A stretch of 64,000 nt of DNA from the NCBI GenBank assembly GCA_020024155.1, contig JAHHUE010000002.1, positions 77 through 64,076 on the forward strand, written 5' to 3'. This document shows positions 21,898 to 29,016 of this stretch, one piece after another. Made by a program: the position numbers and the translations under genes. This DNA comes from Oscillospiraceae bacterium (GTDB taxonomy: Bacteria; Bacillota; Clostridia; Oscillospirales; Ruminococcaceae). Under the pieces are notes generated by a model, which worked only from the letters and a program-made list of their open reading frames with translations, was not told the origin of the DNA and searched no databases. Each line of letters starts with the position of its first letter. The first letter of the stretch is position 1.

Positions 21898-21936
21898 AAA
21901 GACAGATGATTTTACACCATCTGTCTTTATTTTTTA
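21898..21936. terminator. Bidirectional terminator between tmcAL and the binding-protein gene
   Basis: AAAGACAGATG / CATCTGTCTTT stem with T-runs on both strands. Confidence 0.8.
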
Positions 21937-21938
21937 GT

Positions 21939-23093
21939 TTATTCTGAAATATTTTGTTGTGGAGTAATTTGGTCGCCATAAACTTGGTTTGTTATTTCAG
22001 CAATGGTTTTTATAGCTCTTGGGCTGATATTCTCAAACTCTTTAATATTGATATAAAATACATTTCCATTTTTAAAAGCATCTGTTTCTGCAAAGCCCAT
22101 ATCTTTTAGTTGTTCTTCTGTAACTGTATCAGAAACAATTATGATTTCAGGGTTTGATGAAATAATATTTTCCATATTTGATGTAAAATAGTTTTCTCCA
22201 TCTGATACAACATCAAAAAAGTTTGAAAGCAAATCTGCCTCTATTGTGTCAGTTGTTGCCAACATACCATAGTTGTTAAAAATCATAACAACAGATTTTT
22301 TACTTACATTTTGTAATGCAGATTTGTATAGTCCTATCTTTTCTTGAATATCGTTATAAAATCTTTCACCAAGTAATGTTGCTTGTTCTGCACCACAAGT
22401 AAGAGCAGAAATGCTACGATAAATTTCTTTTAACTCTTCCATATTTTTTGGCACATTAAGTGTAAGAATTTTTATTCCACTTTGTTCAATTTTTATTTTA
22501 TCTGTTTCACTTATAGGGTTTTGGATAATAAGATAATCCGGAGCAAGATTTATTATTTCATCAGCTTTTGGAATTAGCGGTGTTCCAACTGTAAGCAAAT
22601 CTTCTCTGCCATGTTTATCACAATATTCACTAACTGCAATAAGTGCATTTTGACTTTGTGATGATAAAATTGCCTCTGTTGCAAAAGGAGATAAACTTAT
22701 AATTTTTGTTGCCGGTTGTTCTATTGTCACACCAAAACTAATTGCCGGATAAACAAAATTGGGTTGTTTGTCTTTTGAAAAAATTGAAGTTATCTTTTTC
22801 CACAAAGATTTCTTTGGTTTAGAAGGTTTTTGTTGATTTTCTTCTTTTTTATCATCATTGTTTTCTGTTGTTGAATTATTCTGTTCAATATTGCTATTAG
22901 AACTATTATCAACAACTACACTTGTATTTATATTAGAAGAACTATCTTGATTATTTTTAACATCTTTTAATACAAAAACAGAAATTGCAATAGTTAAAAT
23001 AACAAGCAATAAAACACCACAAATTACAATTTGTTTTTTACGCTTTTTTTGTTGTTTTTTTCTTTTTTCAGTTTCTGGAGAAATATACTTCAT
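21939..23093 (-). CDS. Membrane-anchored periplasmic-binding-protein-fold protein (BtuF/FhuD-like ABC substrate-binding family)
   Basis: N-terminal K-rich segment and TM helix, then an S/N/E-rich linker. A class III SBP-like domain follows (IISLSPFATE...LAPDYLII...). Confidence 0.65.
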   Translation of the reverse strand: MKYISPETEKRKKQQKKRKKQIVICGVLLLVILTIAISVFVLKDVKNNQDSSSNINTSVVVDNSSNSNIEQNNSTTENNDDKKEENQQKPSKPKKSLWKKITSIFSKDKQPNFVYPAISFGVTIEQPATKIISLSPFATEAILSSQSQNALIAVSEYCDKHGREDLLTVGTPLIPKADEIINLAPDYLIIQNPISETDKIKIEQSGIKILTLNVPKNMEELKEIYRSISALTCGAEQATLLGERFYNDIQEKIGLYKSALQNVSKKSVVMIFNNYGMLATTDTIEADLLSNFFDVVSDGENYFTSNMENIISSNPEIIIVSDTVTEEQLKDMGFAETDAFKNGNVFYINIKEFENISPRAIKTIAEITNQVYGDQITPQQNISE

Positions 23094-23281: not shown

Positions 23282-26200
23282 TTATTTATAACTTTGGATT
23301 GTTATGCCTGTATAGTAGTGTGATAAAATCTGACTGTATGACCAGCCTTCATTTTGAGCATAAAGCTGTGCCCCCCACTGACTCATACCAACACCATGTC
23401 CGTGTCCATAAGTAGTAAATACAAATGTTGAGCCGTCGTAATCTATATCAAAACAATGGGAACGCATAACCATTGCTCCACCTGACTTAAACAAATCTTC
23501 TCTTAAATTTCTGCCTGTTATAGGCATAGTTCTATTTTGATTTTTACTGAAATATGTTGTTTGTCCACAAATAGACATATCGCCGACATAATTACCACTT
23601 GTTCTATTTAAGATTTGGAACCATGTTTCAGGCTCCCCCGTAGGTTCAATACCAACTTCTCTCAATATGTTTTCCATATCTTCTCTTGAATATCTAACAG
23701 TACCTTGATAGCCACTTGCTTGATAATCGTATTTACTTTCAACGGATACTAAATGTCCATAATGCCCACCCCATACTTCTGCTGATGAGTTTGTTCTGCC
23801 TGATGAAGATGCAAAATATGGAGCATAAACTGGTCTTCCACCAATTACCATAATTAAGTCTTTAACTTCATTAACAGCATTTACAACTGAAGTATATGGC
23901 GTTGTTCGGCCTGCAACAGACGGAGCATAATCCCCAATTGACTGCTGATACCTTATGAATGTATGTGTTGCTATTGCTTGAGCTTTCAATGCCTCTGGAT
24001 TCCAACCTGCTGTCATTTCTTTTGAAACAACTTGAGCAAGTATTTTTTCAACAGAATCAGTAACAACTTGTCCATTCATTGTTACAGTAAGTGTATCAAC
24101 TGGGTCTGGTTTTACTTCTGGCTTAGGTTTTTCGTCCGGTTTAGGTTTTTCGTCCGGTTTAGGCTTTTCATCCGGTTTAGGATTTTTATCCGGTTTAGGA
24201 TTTTTATCCGGTTTTGGTTTTTCATTTGGTTTAGTTTCTTCTGTATTAGGTTTTATATAGTCTTCATCATCTTCAAGTGAAGGTCTTTTATTCGAGCTAT
24301 TAGATGAACTACTATCTTTGTCCTTTGATGAACTGTCACCTTTTGATGAGCTGTCTTTTTCGTCTGAAAAACTTGTATCTGAGTCACTGTCATCTTCTTT
24401 TGATGAGCTTTCGCTAGCTTCACTGTCTTGTTCAGAACTGATGTTAGATACATTAGGTTTTGCTATATTTTCTGAATTACCATCGACTTTTTTTGCAAAA
24501 CACATACTTACCATACCTTCATCTGTTACATCTTTAAACACCATAAGGTCATCAAAACCGGTAACATCCTGCACTTCAAAATCTATTTTAGACTCTGCCA
24601 GCACTTCATCAACTACATCTTGGCTATCCTCCATTTTCATAAGTCCATCATACTGTTGCTGTGTATAATCAACTATTGAAAAAATAGAGTATTTATTATA
24701 ATCACCTTTATCTTCAAAAACTAAAACTTCTTTATCATTTTGCCAGTTTTTTATATCTTCAAAACCAGTATATGTTTTTATACCGGCAATTGAAGTATCC
24801 TCATATACAACACTGCCTTTTTCTTTTTCAAACATTTTATATGAGCCTATTGCATATTCGGTAGGAATATTTTTTACTGTTATCCAGCCCTTTAATTTAA
24901 GGTTTTGAGCCCAAGAGCCGGATATTAAATCTACTGTATCCTGCTCAAAACCCTCTGAAAAAAAATTGTTGCTATGCCTCTGACTTATAATACTAGATAC
25001 TGTATCTTTTGAAAATATATTTGAAAAAAAAGAAAAATCACCTAAATTTCCATCTTTTGTTACAAATAAATATCCAAAAGCAATAATTACAGCAAGCAAT
25101 ATAACTGATAAACCAATTATAAGATAATCAATTATCTTTTTGTTTTTTGATTTTGATTTTTTTGGAGCAATTTCCAATACATCGTCAATTGGAAGATTAA
25201 ATATTACTCTACGCAATAAATCAAGTGCATATTGTGTTGCAAGGTTTGTTATTGTTTCTCTATTGCCTGCAAAATGATGTTTTACAACATAAGTTTTTTC
25301 TTTTGTTGAAACAGCAATATATACAAGACCAACATCATCTCCGGTTGGACCTGCATATCCAGTTGTTGCAACACCATATGTGCTTTCTGCTTTTTTACGA
25401 ATATTATTAGCCATCTGAGCTGCAACTTCACTGCTTACTGCTGTATATGTTTCTATTGCATCTTGCTCTACATCAAGTATTTCAACTTTTTGTTTATCAG
25501 AATATGCACATACACCAAGTTCAAATACCATTGATGAACCTGATATACTTGTTAATCTTGATGAAATTCTGCCACCGGTACAACTTTCTGCTGTTGCAAC
25601 AGTCTGCATAGTTTTAGAAAGTGTATTAACTAACACACTTTCAACATTATCAACATCAACACCATAAATATGCTCGCTTATCTTTCTGCTAATCTGTGCA
25701 TATTGTTTATCAAGAAGTTCGTCTGCTTCTTTGTCGCTTTGTGCTTTTGCTGTAATGCGTATTGTAACTTCGCCATCACCTTTTGCGTAAAGAGCCGCTG
25801 TTGGATTTTCACAATCCAAGACCTCTTTCACTTTTGTTTCAAGCATACTTTCCCCTATGCCAATTGTTTTTACATAACGGGATTTGATAACACCTCTAAC
25901 CAATTTTTTCAAAATTGGCATAACTTGTTTATCCATCATAGGTTTAAGTTCTTTTGGAGGACCAGGCAATAAAACTGCCATTTTTTCACCATCTATAAAA
26001 ACTATACCTGGTGCTGTACCATTTTCGTTATTTAAGAACTTGCCTTTTTTAGGAACAAACGCTTGTTGTTTATTGTTATCTGTCATAACACGATTCATTT
26101 TCTCAAAGTGAAGTTTTATTCTATCTTCAACTTCTTGACTATAAACAAGAGTATCATTGTATACTTGTGCAACCGTTTGTTTTGTAAGGTCGTCATCTGT

Positions 26201-26413
26201 TGGCCCAAGTCCACCAGAAAAAATAACAATATCGCTTCTTTCCTTTGCTGTCTGCACAGCTTGTGTAAGTCGTTCTTTGTTATCACCAACAACTTGCTGA
26301 TTGTATACAGATATACCAATTTCAGACAATGCTTGTGCAAGATATTGTGCATTGGTATTTACTATATCGCCAAGCAATAACTCTGTGCCAACACAAATAA
26401 TTTCTGCGCGCAA
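23282..26413 (-). CDS. Fusion protein: full-length CinA (MoCF-binding + PncC-like NMN deamidase), TM helix, unassigned domain, acidic/KP-repeat linker, SpoIID-type domain
   Basis: N-terminal AEIICVGTELLLGDIVNTNAQYL and ATAESCTGG match CinA. The TM helix is IIGLSVILLAVIIAFGYLFV. C-terminal EALKAQAIATHTF...HGHGVGMSQWGA matches SpoIID. TTG start. Confidence 0.85.
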   Translation of the reverse strand: MRAEIICVGTELLLGDIVNTNAQYLAQALSEIGISVYNQQVVGDNKERLTQAVQTAKERSDIVIFSGGLGPTDDDLTKQTVAQVYNDTLVYSQEVEDRIKLHFEKMNRVMTDNNKQQAFVPKKGKFLNNENGTAPGIVFIDGEKMAVLLPGPPKELKPMMDKQVMPILKKLVRGVIKSRYVKTIGIGESMLETKVKEVLDCENPTAALYAKGDGEVTIRITAKAQSDKEADELLDKQYAQISRKISEHIYGVDVDNVESVLVNTLSKTMQTVATAESCTGGRISSRLTSISGSSMVFELGVCAYSDKQKVEILDVEQDAIETYTAVSSEVAAQMANNIRKKAESTYGVATTGYAGPTGDDVGLVYIAVSTKEKTYVVKHHFAGNRETITNLATQYALDLLRRVIFNLPIDDVLEIAPKKSKSKNKKIIDYLIIGLSVILLAVIIAFGYLFVTKDGNLGDFSFFSNIFSKDTVSSIISQRHSNNFFSEGFEQDTVDLISGSWAQNLKLKGWITVKNIPTEYAIGSYKMFEKEKGSVVYEDTSIAGIKTYTGFEDIKNWQNDKEVLVFEDKGDYNKYSIFSIVDYTQQQYDGLMKMEDSQDVVDEVLAESKIDFEVQDVTGFDDLMVFKDVTDEGMVSMCFAKKVDGNSENIAKPNVSNISSEQDSEASESSSKEDDSDSDTSFSDEKDSSSKGDSSSKDKDSSSSNSSNKRPSLEDDEDYIKPNTEETKPNEKPKPDKNPKPDKNPKPDEKPKPDEKPKPDEKPKPEVKPDPVDTLTVTMNGQVVTDSVEKILAQVVSKEMTAGWNPEALKAQAIATHTFIRYQQSIGDYAPSVAGRTTPYTSVVNAVNEVKDLIMVIGGRPVYAPYFASSSGRTNSSAEVWGGHYGHLVSVESKYDYQASGYQGTVRYSREDMENILREVGIEPTGEPETWFQILNRTSGNYVGDMSICGQTTYFSKNQNRTMPITGRNLREDLFKSGGAMVMRSHCFDIDYDGSTFVFTTYGHGHGVGMSQWGAQLYAQNEGWSYSQILSHYYTGITIQSYK
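24120..24245 (-). repeat. About seven tandem 18-bp coding repeats (KPKPDE/N units) inside the CinA-SpoIID ORF
   Basis: Plus-strand units GGTTTAGGTTTTTCGTCC and close variants in direct succession, translating to NEKPKPDKNPKPDKNPKPDEKPKPDEKPKPDEKPKPE. Confidence 0.9.
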
Positions 26414-26456
26414 TTATTTCACCCTTTCCTCTAATATTTTTATACTATCTTTTAAA

Positions 26457-27641
26457 TTAAACTATATTTACAAATACTTTTTCAACCTGAGCCATTGCCT
26501 CATCTTCTAATTTGCGAAGTGTTTCCATATTCATATTTTCTTCTGCATTAAGAATTTCTTCCATAGAAGGTTTTGTTTTTGGATGGCTTGGTGTAAAGAT
26601 TGTACAGCAGTCTTCAAAAGGAAGAATTGATGTTTCAAATGTATCAATTTTTCTTGCTATCTCTGTAATTTCGTTTTTGTCCATACCTATTACAGGGCGA
26701 AGTATTGGCATTTCAACAGATGAGTCTGTTGCTTTTATTGCTTTAAGTGTTTGGCTTGCAACCTGAGCAAGACTTTCGCCAGTAATTATAGCCTCTGCAC
26801 CATTTTCTTCTGCAAGTTTCTCTGTAATTCTCATCATACTTCTACGCATAAGAACTGTAAATAATTCCGGAACACCATTATCACGGATATATTCTTGTGG
26901 AACTGTAAAAGGAACAATATAAAGTGTAATATCTCCGGTGTATTCTTTAACCTTTTCACAAAGGGTAATAACTTTTTGTCTTGCTCTTTCACTTGTGTAT
27001 GGAGGAGAAGCAAAGTGAACAGCCATAAGGTTCATACCTCTTTTAGCCATCATATAAGCAGCAACAGGGCTGTCTATACCACCGGAAAGCATAAGAGCAC
27101 CTTTACCTGATGTAGATACAGGCATACCACCTGCTGCCTGTTCTTTTCCTCCATGAACATAAGCGCCAAAATCACGAATTTCAACCATAACTGTTGCATC
27201 TGGATTATTGACATCAACTCTAAGATGATGATATTTGCTAAGAATTCTGCCACCAAGTTCTCTTGCTATTTCCGGCGATTTCATCGGGAAAGCTTTATCA
27301 CTTCTCTTTGCAACAACTTTAAATGTTTTTGCATTTCTCAATGTATCTTCAAGATATTCAACTGCTGTTTTTGCAATAACTTCAAAATCTTTTTCAACAA
27401 CAACAGCTTTACTTATTGTTGCAATACCAAAAATCTTCTTGATTTTTTCGTATGCTGCATCAACATCACTATCTTCTGTTTCAGGTTCAACATATATTGT
27501 ACTTTGTGCTTTATATGTTTTAAATTTACCAAGTTTTTTAATTCTTCTTCTGATTGTCTTCATCAGCTGTGCTTCAAATGTGCTTTTATTAAGCCCTTTA
27601 AGACAAACTTCGCCAAGATAGCAAATAATCAATTGTTTCAT
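26457..27641 (-). CDS. thiI: tRNA 4-thiouridine synthase ThiI
   Basis: 394 aa with a THUMP-like N-terminus and the PP-loop LMLSGGIDSPVAAY. Confidence 0.9.
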   Translation of the reverse strand: MKQLIICYLGEVCLKGLNKSTFEAQLMKTIRRRIKKLGKFKTYKAQSTIYVEPETEDSDVDAAYEKIKKIFGIATISKAVVVEKDFEVIAKTAVEYLEDTLRNAKTFKVVAKRSDKAFPMKSPEIARELGGRILSKYHHLRVDVNNPDATVMVEIRDFGAYVHGGKEQAAGGMPVSTSGKGALMLSGGIDSPVAAYMMAKRGMNLMAVHFASPPYTSERARQKVITLCEKVKEYTGDITLYIVPFTVPQEYIRDNGVPELFTVLMRRSMMRITEKLAEENGAEAIITGESLAQVASQTLKAIKATDSSVEMPILRPVIGMDKNEITEIARKIDTFETSILPFEDCCTIFTPSHPKTKPSMEEILNAEENMNMETLRKLEDEAMAQVEKVFVNIV

Positions 27642-28777
27642 TACTTTTTCACCTTCTGTAATTTTTCTTGTGCAGATTTAAGAGCTGCAATAAACTTATC
27701 TATATCTTCTTCTGTTGTATTTACACCAAAACTTACCCTTATAGCACTGTCTATTCTTTTATCACTAAGTCTCATCGCTTCAAGTGTGTGACTTGCTGAG
27801 CCTTTTGAGCAAGCTGAACCTGATGAAATATAAATTTCGTCTTGTTCAAGAAAATGAAGTAATGTTTCACTGCGATAATTCATAAAAGAAAAGTTCACTG
27901 TATAAGGCATTGCATTATTTGGAGAGTTTACAATAACATTATCAAACTGCTTTAAACCGTCAAGAAGTCTTTCTTTCAACACTGTATAGTGGTTTAAATT
28001 CTGCTTTATATTATTGCCAAGAAGTTCGCAAGCCTTTTCAAGCCCAAGAATATAGTGGATATTCTCTGTACCAGCTCTAAGACCTCTTTCTTGTCCACCA
28101 CCTATGATAACTGATTTTATATTTGTGCCTTTTCTAAGGAATAAACCACCTATACCTTTTGGAGCATTGATTTTGTGTCCTGAAAACGCAATTGATTCTG
28201 CCATAATCTTTGTTGTATCAATAGGCACTTTCATAAATGACTGTGTTGCATCAATATGTATAACGGTACGTTTATTTTTTTGCTTTATCTTTTCACACAG
28301 ACTTTTTACATCTATAACTGCGCCTGTTTCATTGTTAACATGAATCATTGTAACAAGTGCTGTTTTGCTGTCCACTGCATCAAGTAACTCGTTTGCATCA
28401 ATATTTCCATCTTCTTGTGGGTTAATATTTACAATAGTAAAGCCCATTTCTTTAAGATTTTCAAGTGGCATTCTCACAGACGGATGCTCATATCCTGTTG
28501 TTACAATTTTATTTGCCCAGTTTTTTCTAGCCATAGCAAGACCGTAAATTGCAATGTTATTGCTTTCTGACGCACAAGATGTAAAGTAAATCTCATCATC
28601 TTTTGCATTTATAAATCCTGCGATAGTAGCTCTTGCTTTATTTATTTTATTTTCTGTTACAGCACCAATTTTATATAATGAAGATGGATTTGCAAAATCC
28701 TCTGAAAGACTTTTTGCAATCACATCTGCAACTTGAATGTTTATCGGTGTTGTTGCTGCATTATCAAGATAAATCAT
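27641..28777 (-). CDS. Cysteine desulfurase (NifS/IscS class V aminotransferase)
   Basis: IYLDNAATTP, SGHK (PLP lysine) and SSGSACS motifs. Start set at the ATG at 28777 after AGAGG. Adjacent to thiI. Confidence 0.9.
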   Translation of the reverse strand: MIYLDNAATTPINIQVADVIAKSLSEDFANPSSLYKIGAVTENKINKARATIAGFINAKDDEIYFTSCASESNNIAIYGLAMARKNWANKIVTTGYEHPSVRMPLENLKEMGFTIVNINPQEDGNIDANELLDAVDSKTALVTMIHVNNETGAVIDVKSLCEKIKQKNKRTVIHIDATQSFMKVPIDTTKIMAESIAFSGHKINAPKGIGGLFLRKGTNIKSVIIGGGQERGLRAGTENIHYILGLEKACELLGNNIKQNLNHYTVLKERLLDGLKQFDNVIVNSPNNAMPYTVNFSFMNYRSETLLHFLEQDEIYISSGSACSKGSASHTLEAMRLSDKRIDSAIRVSFGVNTTEEDIDKFIAALKSAQEKLQKVKK

Positions 28778-29016
28778 TATATCAACCTCTTGTATCTGAG
28801 AATATTCATTCAAATTAGTTTATTATAACATAAATAAACAATTTAGTAAATTAGTTATTAAAAATACTGTCAGTATTACTTAATATTTATACAGTGTATA
28901 TTAAAACTTTTGTATTTTTATTTTGTTTACAACTTCAATTTTTATGTTATGATTGTGTATATGATTTTAAATCATATATATTATTTGGTTAGTTATTATG
29001 GAGGTGTGTATTTAAG

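Follow-up and report, generated by a model that had tools for sequence, protein, structure and literature searches.

Why would CinA, a protein of NAD salvage, be encoded in one reading frame with a cell-wall enzyme of the SpoIID family? CinA is almost universal in bacteria, and its physiological role beyond NAD salvage has been unclear for 30 years. The question is raised by a gene in a 64,000-nucleotide stretch from the genome of an Oscillospiraceae bacterium (NCBI GenBank assembly GCA_020024155.1, contig JAHHUE010000002.1, positions 77 to 64,076 of the forward strand; the whole stretch is referred to as the window). An earlier note, made from the letters of the window, had described a single open reading frame (ORF) of 1043 residues joining a complete CinA, by way of a transmembrane (TM) helix, to an extracytoplasmic SpoIID-type domain, with a middle part of about 190 residues that it could not assign. 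We report here that the fusion is, judged from its sequence and its relatives, near certainly a genuine and conserved gene of gut Clostridia (Oscillospiraceae), and that its middle part is modeled as a class B sortase devoid of the catalytic triad. The gene is probably the fully fused form of a conserved module of thiI, cinA, srtB and spoIID-like genes in Oscillospiraceae and related families, with a product in which CinA is tethered to a wall-remodeling ectodomain. All three domains belong to known families, but their combination was found in no paper.

The ORF is encoded on the minus strand and the frame is open without interruption over 3129 nucleotides (nt), as the earlier note had it. The start codon is TTG (26411-26413, minus strand), and the N-termini of orthologues read MRAEIICVG or MKTLRAEIICVG. 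The gene and its parts are listed here in the direction of translation.

23282..26413, minus strand: the whole ORF, 1043 residues plus stop, comprising CinA, a TM helix, a predicted dead sortase B, a spacer and a SpoIID/LytB-like domain
26420..26430, minus strand: ribosome-binding site AGGAAAGGGTG, 6 nt upstream of the TTG start
25898..26413, minus strand: N-terminal COG1058/MoCF-type domain of CinA, an ADP-ribose pyrophosphatase module (residues 1-172; PF00994, E 5e-38)
25661..25882, minus strand: KH-type middle domain of CinA (residues 178-251; PF18146, E 8e-20)
25202..25648, minus strand: CinA/PncC NMN-deamidase domain (residues 256-404; PF02464, E 2e-47)
25136..25165, minus strand: Lys-rich cytoplasmic juxtamembrane segment PKKSKSKNKK, a positive-inside signal (residues 417-426)
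25061..25123, minus strand: single TM helix LIIGLSVILLAVIIAFGYLFV (residues 431-451; Kyte-Doolittle score 2.81 in a 19-residue window)
24464..24991, minus strand: class B sortase-fold domain, predicted to be catalytically dead (residues ~475-650)
24098..24463, minus strand: low-complexity, disordered spacer of about 120 residues, a Ser/Asp/Glu-rich tract followed by KPKPDE repeats (residues 651-772)
24108..24234, minus strand: tandem repeat with an 18-bp unit in 7.1 copies, encoding KPKPD(E/K/N) (Tandem Repeats Finder score 142, 87% matches)
23285..24097, minus strand: SpoIID/LytB-family domain, a putative lytic transglycosylase (residues 773-1043)
24017..24019, minus strand: codon of E799, the equivalent of the catalytic Glu, aligned with residue 101 of 5txu

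The reality of the fusion was assessed from its relatives. A search of 5.8 billion protein clusters yielded 144 long CinA-headed proteins, and about 50 clusters share four Pfam domains with the fusion at 40-67% identity. These clusters derive from metagenome-assembled genomes (MAGs) of Oscillospiraceae and Ruminococcaceae, taken from ENA, JGI, NCBI and Logan, and the database name of every one of them is only "competence/damage-inducible protein A". Forty-three full-length orthologues (37-63% identity) align with the fusion from end to end and continuously through the CinA/TM junction, each with one TM helix at the same position. An independent MAG of an Oscillospiraceae bacterium (MAG099, JAHHUD010000008.1, locus L034) has the ORF intact, at 74% identity and in the same gene order, while the neighboring genes are 82-95% identical to those of the window. 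A contig scan with the single protein gave one true relative, the peptide patterns being too specific, and the search of a genome sample was more informative.

One may ask whether an error of assembly or sequencing, with a missed stop codon or frameshift, could have joined two or three genes. In favor of such an error, the genome is divided into 128 contigs, and some relatives do have separate genes. On the other hand, the frame is open throughout, there is no start or ribosome-binding site at the junctions, the same architecture recurs in dozens of independent assemblies from four sources (ENA, JGI, NCBI and Logan), and both the syntenic MAG and a genome of the same genus (G134) agree with it; we consider an artefact extremely improbable. 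The CinA/TM junction in particular, where the earlier note had proposed looking for a missed stop or a frameshift, contained neither of these on inspection, and a search for an internal start at this junction found neither an ATG nor a Shine-Dalgarno motif.

The CinA head is complete. Pfam places MoCF_biosynth at residues 4-170, CinA_KH at 178-251 and CinA at 256-403, and the NCBIfam CinA equivalog NF001813 covers residues 1-404 with 471 bits against a cut-off of 379, in line with the CinA of about 410 residues in the earlier note. Searched against PDB, the CinA part matches 6mr3 (E 3e-79) and CinA from Thermus thermophilus, TtCinA (4ct8, E 5e-52), and with these known proteins (4ct8/4uux and 6mr3) it shares the three-domain layout of COG1058/MoCF, KH and PncC, a score above the equivalog cut-off and the equivalents of the catalytic residues. 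The GGLGPTxDD motif of the COG1058 domain (columns G67-D75) is invariant in the 43 orthologues. The PncC domain carries AESCTGG, Y304, K309 and T351-G-Y-A-G, and A275-G281, Y304, K309 and T351 are likewise invariant in all 43. These PncC residues correspond to Tyr-296, Lys-301 and Thr-340/Ala-343/Gly-344 of TtCinA, a dimer in which the absolutely conserved Lys-301 is the proposed general base (PMC4246079). With its active-site residues intact, the head is predicted to be enzymatically functional. Since the fusion is the single CinA match in the 97%-complete genome, it must supply the CinA function of the cell, predicted to comprise both NMN deamidase and ADP-ribose pyrophosphatase.

The surroundings of this head differ from those of known CinAs. 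The latter are soluble proteins of about 410 residues, often encoded beside recA, whereas here CinA is the head of a membrane protein with one TM helix, and its gene follows thiI. A cinA-recA operon context was considered and rejected, with recA found on another contig (C2), unlinked to the fusion gene. A classification of NMN deamidases states that CinA is sometimes found joined to additional domains, and such proteins were excluded there (PMC3855486). A description of a CinA-sortase or CinA-SpoIID architecture was not found in the searchable literature, in agreement with the earlier note.

The membrane segment was also borne out. The helix (about residues 431-449 or 451) is preceded by the Lys-rich PKKSKSKNKK and followed by a near-neutral stretch, and almost all long CinA homologues have a helix at the corresponding place. 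From the Lys-rich flank and the positive-inside rule it follows that CinA should be located in the cytoplasm and everything past the helix outside, so that the topology suggested in the earlier note is self-consistent. The product is thus predicted to be one N-in, single-pass membrane protein.

The segments differ markedly in conservation. Mean pairwise identity among the orthologues is 0.61-0.73 for the CinA domains (0.73 for the MoCF-type domain) and 0.64 for the SpoIID-like domain, but 0.39 for the middle domain, 0.30 for the juxtamembrane linker and 0.29, the lowest value of all segments, for the spacer. One would anticipate such values where a relaxed but still folded module connects two enzymes under constraint. 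The acidic tract and KPKPDE repeats described in the earlier note are real; the repeat is a plausible length-variable, wall-spanning linker, and the orthologues have unrelated Thr/Pro/Ser-rich linkers at this place.

What, then, is the middle domain? Residues 455-665 gave no match in Pfam, NCBIfam or a PDB sequence search, and none of the sortase hidden Markov models (HMMs) reached its threshold. To this extent the domain is as unassignable as the earlier note had found it, but profile-profile comparison and structure prediction, by which alone it was recognized, do assign it. In many long CinA homologues a Pfam Sortase domain directly follows the TM helix (P0099 is CinA-TM-Sortase and P0054 is CinA-TM-Sortase-SpoIID), and several of the CinA-linked sortase domains pass the class B sortase equivalog TIGR03064 (152-194 bits in relatives, cut-off 153.75). 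In hhalign, the middle domain, represented by a profile of 42 orthologues, aligned to a profile of the sortase domains from CinA-SrtB proteins with a probability of 96.4% and an E of 1e-9. The AlphaFold2 model of residues 455-665 (pLDDT 77.6, pTM 0.72) was used for a Foldseek search of PDB, in which the 14 best matches were all sortase B, the best being C. perfringens SrtB (5yfk, E 6e-11, TM-score 0.62).

The modeled domain thus has the same fold as class B sortases (5yfk/5b23, S. aureus 1ng5, B. anthracis 2oqz and C. difficile 4ux7), a beta-barrel with N-terminal helices, and like them it sits directly outside a membrane anchor at its N-terminal side. It is homologous to the bona fide SrtB domains fused to CinA in relatives. 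Unlike the known class B sortases, it has CinA on the cytoplasmic side and a SpoIID-like domain at the C-terminus, and it has lost the catalytic His, Cys and Arg. In the alignment the segment of the catalytic His is deleted, and the Cys of TLxTC and the catalytic Arg are replaced or unalignable. According to the model and the alignments, the middle domain is therefore a class B sortase without its His/Cys/Arg triad. One ordinary sortase of 260 residues is encoded elsewhere in the genome.

The C-terminal part has the fold of SpoIID. TIGR02669 (SpoIID_LytB) recognizes residues 788-1040 with 144 bits (cut-off 83.3), and the PDB structures of SpoIID, 4rwr, 5i1t and 5txu, are matched with E values of about 1e-25. 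The AlphaFold2 model of the domain (pLDDT 92.3, pTM 0.88) is closest in Foldseek to 5i1t (TM-score 0.82, E 8e-22) and 4rwr (TM-score 0.72). As in SpoIID from B. subtilis, B. anthracis (4rwr) and C. difficile (5i1t/5txu), the catalytic Glu is kept, and so is the C-terminal GHGVGMSQWGA block. The Glu is E88 in B. subtilis and E101 in C. difficile (PMC6221140, PMC6635528), and its equivalent, E799, is invariant in the 43 orthologues as well as in free SpoIID-like relatives. The domain is thus conserved and, as suggested by sequence and model, plausibly active. SpoIID is anchored by a short N-terminal helix, whereas the domain of the fusion is anchored via the dead sortase and CinA.

The SpoIID label of the earlier note holds for the family, but not for the sporulation protein. 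On the SpoIID equivalog TIGR02870 the fusion protein reaches 133 bits, well below the cut-off of 234.75. When the genome was scanned with TIGR02870 the fusion gave 110 and 29 bits, and a separate gene on contig C58 gave 217 bits. This stand-alone SpoIID-like gene of 345 residues with an N-terminal anchor (G000:C58:9291-10277, minus strand; L006) is, going by its score, probably the real engulfment SpoIID of the organism, and the fact that it falls just under 234.75 suggests that for this lineage the curated threshold has been set a little too high. The genome has a third SpoIID/LytB-like match, a weak one (TIGR02669, 21 and 20 bits), in a 594-residue frame (G000:C40:24015-24416, minus strand).

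Could the fusion nevertheless be the SpoIID of sporulation, that is, the engulfment transglycosylase of the mother cell with extra N-terminal domains, expressed alongside SpoIIP and SpoIIM? The organism has Spo0A, SpoIVA and SpoIIP and is therefore a spore former, and the domain has the fold and the catalytic Glu of SpoIID. However, the separate gene scores far higher on TIGR02870, and the fusion is kept in genomes where SpoIVA and SpoIIP were not found. In a sample with one genome per genus of the family (151 genomes), SpoIVA was not found in 17, three of which (94-97% complete) have the full fusion; in these three no SpoIIP was detected, nor any SpoIID-family match besides the fusion. The chromosomal setting, finally, is one of housekeeping genes, as seen from the neighbors of the fusion gene.

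26457..28813, minus strand: a nifS/iscS-like cysteine desulfurase gene (27641-28813) and thiI (26457-27641), upstream of the fusion gene and co-oriented with it
21939-23093, minus strand: gene of a TroA-like substrate-binding protein, downstream and co-oriented; with the terminator hairpin that follows it, 21898..23093

A gap of 43 nt separates thiI from the fusion gene. Upstream of nifS, at 28822-28850, a sigma-70-like promoter is predicted, and the sole strong terminator hairpin of the gene block is found at 21898-21928, after the TroA-like gene. Taken together, the low TIGR02870 score, the gene on contig C58, the persistence without SpoIVA and SpoIIP and the nifS-thiI setting with its sigma-70-like promoter make vegetative wall remodeling the better reading of the fusion, and an engulfment role appears unlikely. 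The view that the fusion is the sporulation SpoIID is already largely refuted, and we would give it very little weight. A SpoIID homologue that acts at the division septum of non-sporulating bacteria is described in the chlamydial case (PMC6635528).

The TroA-like/helical-backbone substrate-binding protein encoded downstream has a TM helix at its N-terminus and a linker rich in Asn and Ser. It is 64% identical in MAG L034, compared with 82-95% for the neighboring genes, and is thus a fast-evolving surface protein, as is the fusion.

How the fusion came about can be followed within the family. One genome from each of 150 genera was surveyed, 55 loci were fetched and their ORFs were classified with HMMs from our own alignments. 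The cinA locus lies directly downstream of thiI in every state wherever the flank is available. In the majority of genera only a free CinA is present (state A). Four genera have separate cinA, TM-SrtB and SpoIID-like genes (state B), and six have CinA-TM-SrtB followed by a separate SpoIID-like gene (state C), with a variant in three genera that have CinA-TM-SrtB alone. The full fusion (state D) is found in the window, in the genome of the same genus and in at least 13 other genera. Five genera, finally, have a free CinA followed by a membrane protein in which a CinA remnant of about 300 residues (KH and PncC) precedes a dead sortase and a SpoIID-like domain (state E). This remnant has no MoCF domain, its AESCTGG has become AAD(A/E)(A/T)TG with loss of the Ser and Cys, and the TGxAG loop is deleted. 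At the five loci in question the membrane protein is 940-1014 residues long and its gene directly follows the free cinA.

The earlier note would have taken the fusion as refuted if close relatives had a stop codon and a ribosome-binding site between the two parts and resequencing showed the same here. The close relatives are fused, and adjacent separate genes are found in more distant genera of the family, which points to a functional link and is no refutation of the fusion. In a sample at the level of the order, CinA-TM-SrtB with an intact TLxTC is present in at least three further families, in one of which a SpoIID-like gene adjoins it. From this spread over several families of the order it appears that the link between CinA and sortase is the old core, and that the SpoIID-like domain is a later C-terminal addition.

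Of 33 sortase domains inspected, 13 lack fusion to a SpoIID-like domain, and all of these have an intact His/Cys/Arg triad; the other 20 are fused to one, and 19 of them have lost the triad. The exception (G053) is placed near the base of the main fused group. This protein (L057, G053:C72) and P0054 are rare full fusions with a retained triad, and may stand midway between the CinA-SrtB state and the triple fusion with a dead sortase.

Some further variants of the core were observed. Other C-terminal additions on CinA-TM-sortase are an N-acetylglucosaminidase domain (P0085), three PASTA domains (P0104) or several Big/Ig-like domains (the additions were seen in P0085, P0104, P0117, P0118, P0111 and P0119), all of them wall-binding or wall-cutting modules. 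In an 893-residue ORF (L075, G075:C14) a CinA head and a SpoIID-like C-terminus occur without a detectable sortase-like segment, which has either been lost completely or diverged beyond the HMMs used. In another family of the order an 885-residue ORF (L082, G162:C7) fuses a PncC-only CinA to sortase B; it has two predicted TM helices and no MoCF or KH match.

The same series could be read as a neutral fusion of operon neighbors, in which stop codons were lost where topology permitted, each module works independently and the link itself has no function. Topology allows such a joining of a cytoplasmic C-terminus to a protein that begins with a membrane anchor. In favor of this reading, one family contains every split and fused state, most genera manage well with CinA in its free form, and the juxtamembrane linker is poorly conserved. 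This is the main rival, but three observations are at odds with it. Adjacency or fusion of cinA and srtB is kept in several families of the order, the fused forms have persisted for long, their orthologues ranging down to about 40% identity, and the dead CinA remnant of some 300 residues is kept in five genera, whereas neutral decay would be expected to delete it. We therefore judge neutral fusion to be unlikely, and prefer the reading in which the fusion is the fully fused form of a conserved module that holds CinA at the membrane.

Several observations weigh against this preferred reading. To our knowledge there is no biochemical connection between NAD salvage and peptidoglycan remodeling, a point that equally favors neutral fusion, and in the majority of genera in the family CinA is free and no such module adjoins it. 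The correlation between fusion and loss of the triad may reflect one to few evolutionary events: a single origin of all fused forms was not rejected in the approximately unbiased (AU) test (p = 0.144). The tree of the SpoIID-like domain has moderate support only, and in view of both results we claim neither that convergent fusion occurred repeatedly nor that fusion and sortase decay are linked in a statistically independent way. Moreover, the SpoIID-like domain is 22-26 residues shorter than the solved structures between two conserved blocks, and the missing segment of about 25 residues covers the Zn-binding turn required by C. difficile SpoIID; the corresponding segment here has about 10 residues without Cys or His. 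The Pfam match to PF08486 covers just positions 12-49 of 97, and with the shortened segment this means that catalytic competence is not assured. The Zn-binding turn (H134, C140, H145 and C146) is, however, a motif specific to C. difficile SpoIID (PMC6221140), and its absence is therefore compatible with membership in the wider SpoIID/LytB family.

The mechanism is a separate matter from the architecture, which is near certain, and what we propose for it from the sequence is tentative, rather less than an even bet. The ectodomain would cleave the glycan strands of peptidoglycan, or assist an amidase as LytB and SpoIID do, and it would act in vegetative growth or division and not in engulfment. 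By way of the long spacer, the SpoIID-like domain may gain access to the interior of the thick wall. The dead sortase would have given up transpeptidation and may instead be used for binding or targeting, its ligand being a stem peptide, lipid II or a partner protein. Selection would have acted on the physical tethering of CinA to a wall-remodeling ectodomain at the membrane. That the tether itself is selected is suggested by the lineages of state E, which have regained a free CinA and still keep a dead CinA remnant on the membrane protein. CinA would most likely act as a dimerizing cytoplasmic head, as suggested by the TtCinA dimer (PMC4246079), with its enzymatic role kept, and may also be a docking platform; the remnant of state E could bring in the free CinA by way of the dimer interface of PncC.

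A more far-reaching possibility is that CinA has its real role at the membrane as adaptor or sensor of a sortase-derived wall-remodeling machine. The head would sense NAD, NMN or ADP-ribose, or bind RecA or a divisome partner, and in this way control the cleavage of peptidoglycan on the outside. A divisome adaptor with an MoCF fold on a membrane receptor does exist in Corynebacteriales, where Glp, a gephyrin-like MoeA paralogue, and GlpR offer a precedent for a cytoplasmic protein of this fold recruited to the membrane for envelope morphogenesis (PMC10522489), and the N-domain of the CinA head weakly matches that family (NF045515, E 1e-9). A complex of CinA with RecA in pneumococcus, as well as the targeting of RecA to the membrane, has been reported (Masure 1998, as cited in PMC4246079), and the retained CinA remnant and the SpoIID homologue active at a division septum would also fit. 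However, the argument is purely analogical. Glp/GlpR involves MoeA and not CinA, consists of two separate proteins and has no extracellular hydrolase, recA is unlinked here, and allosteric signals are poorly transmitted through one TM helix. We regard such transmembrane coupling as doubtful, more so than neutral fusion, and retain the tethered CinA with a wall-remodeling ectodomain as the probable reading.

If the role as adaptor or sensor were true, CinA, named for competence and damage induction, would gain a structural function in the envelope, and old reports of membrane-associated CinA would be explained. The database name "competence/damage-inducible protein A" hides two thirds of the protein. 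The dead sortase is a clear natural pseudo-sortase, in which the fold was kept after catalysis was lost, and an enzyme of the SpoIID family is retained in probable non-spore formers. Across abundant gut Clostridia, the "Rosetta-stone" series of split and fused genes ties CinA physically and genomically to a sortase and to a SpoIID-type wall enzyme, and thereby gives a concrete, testable hypothesis of an envelope-linked role for CinA.

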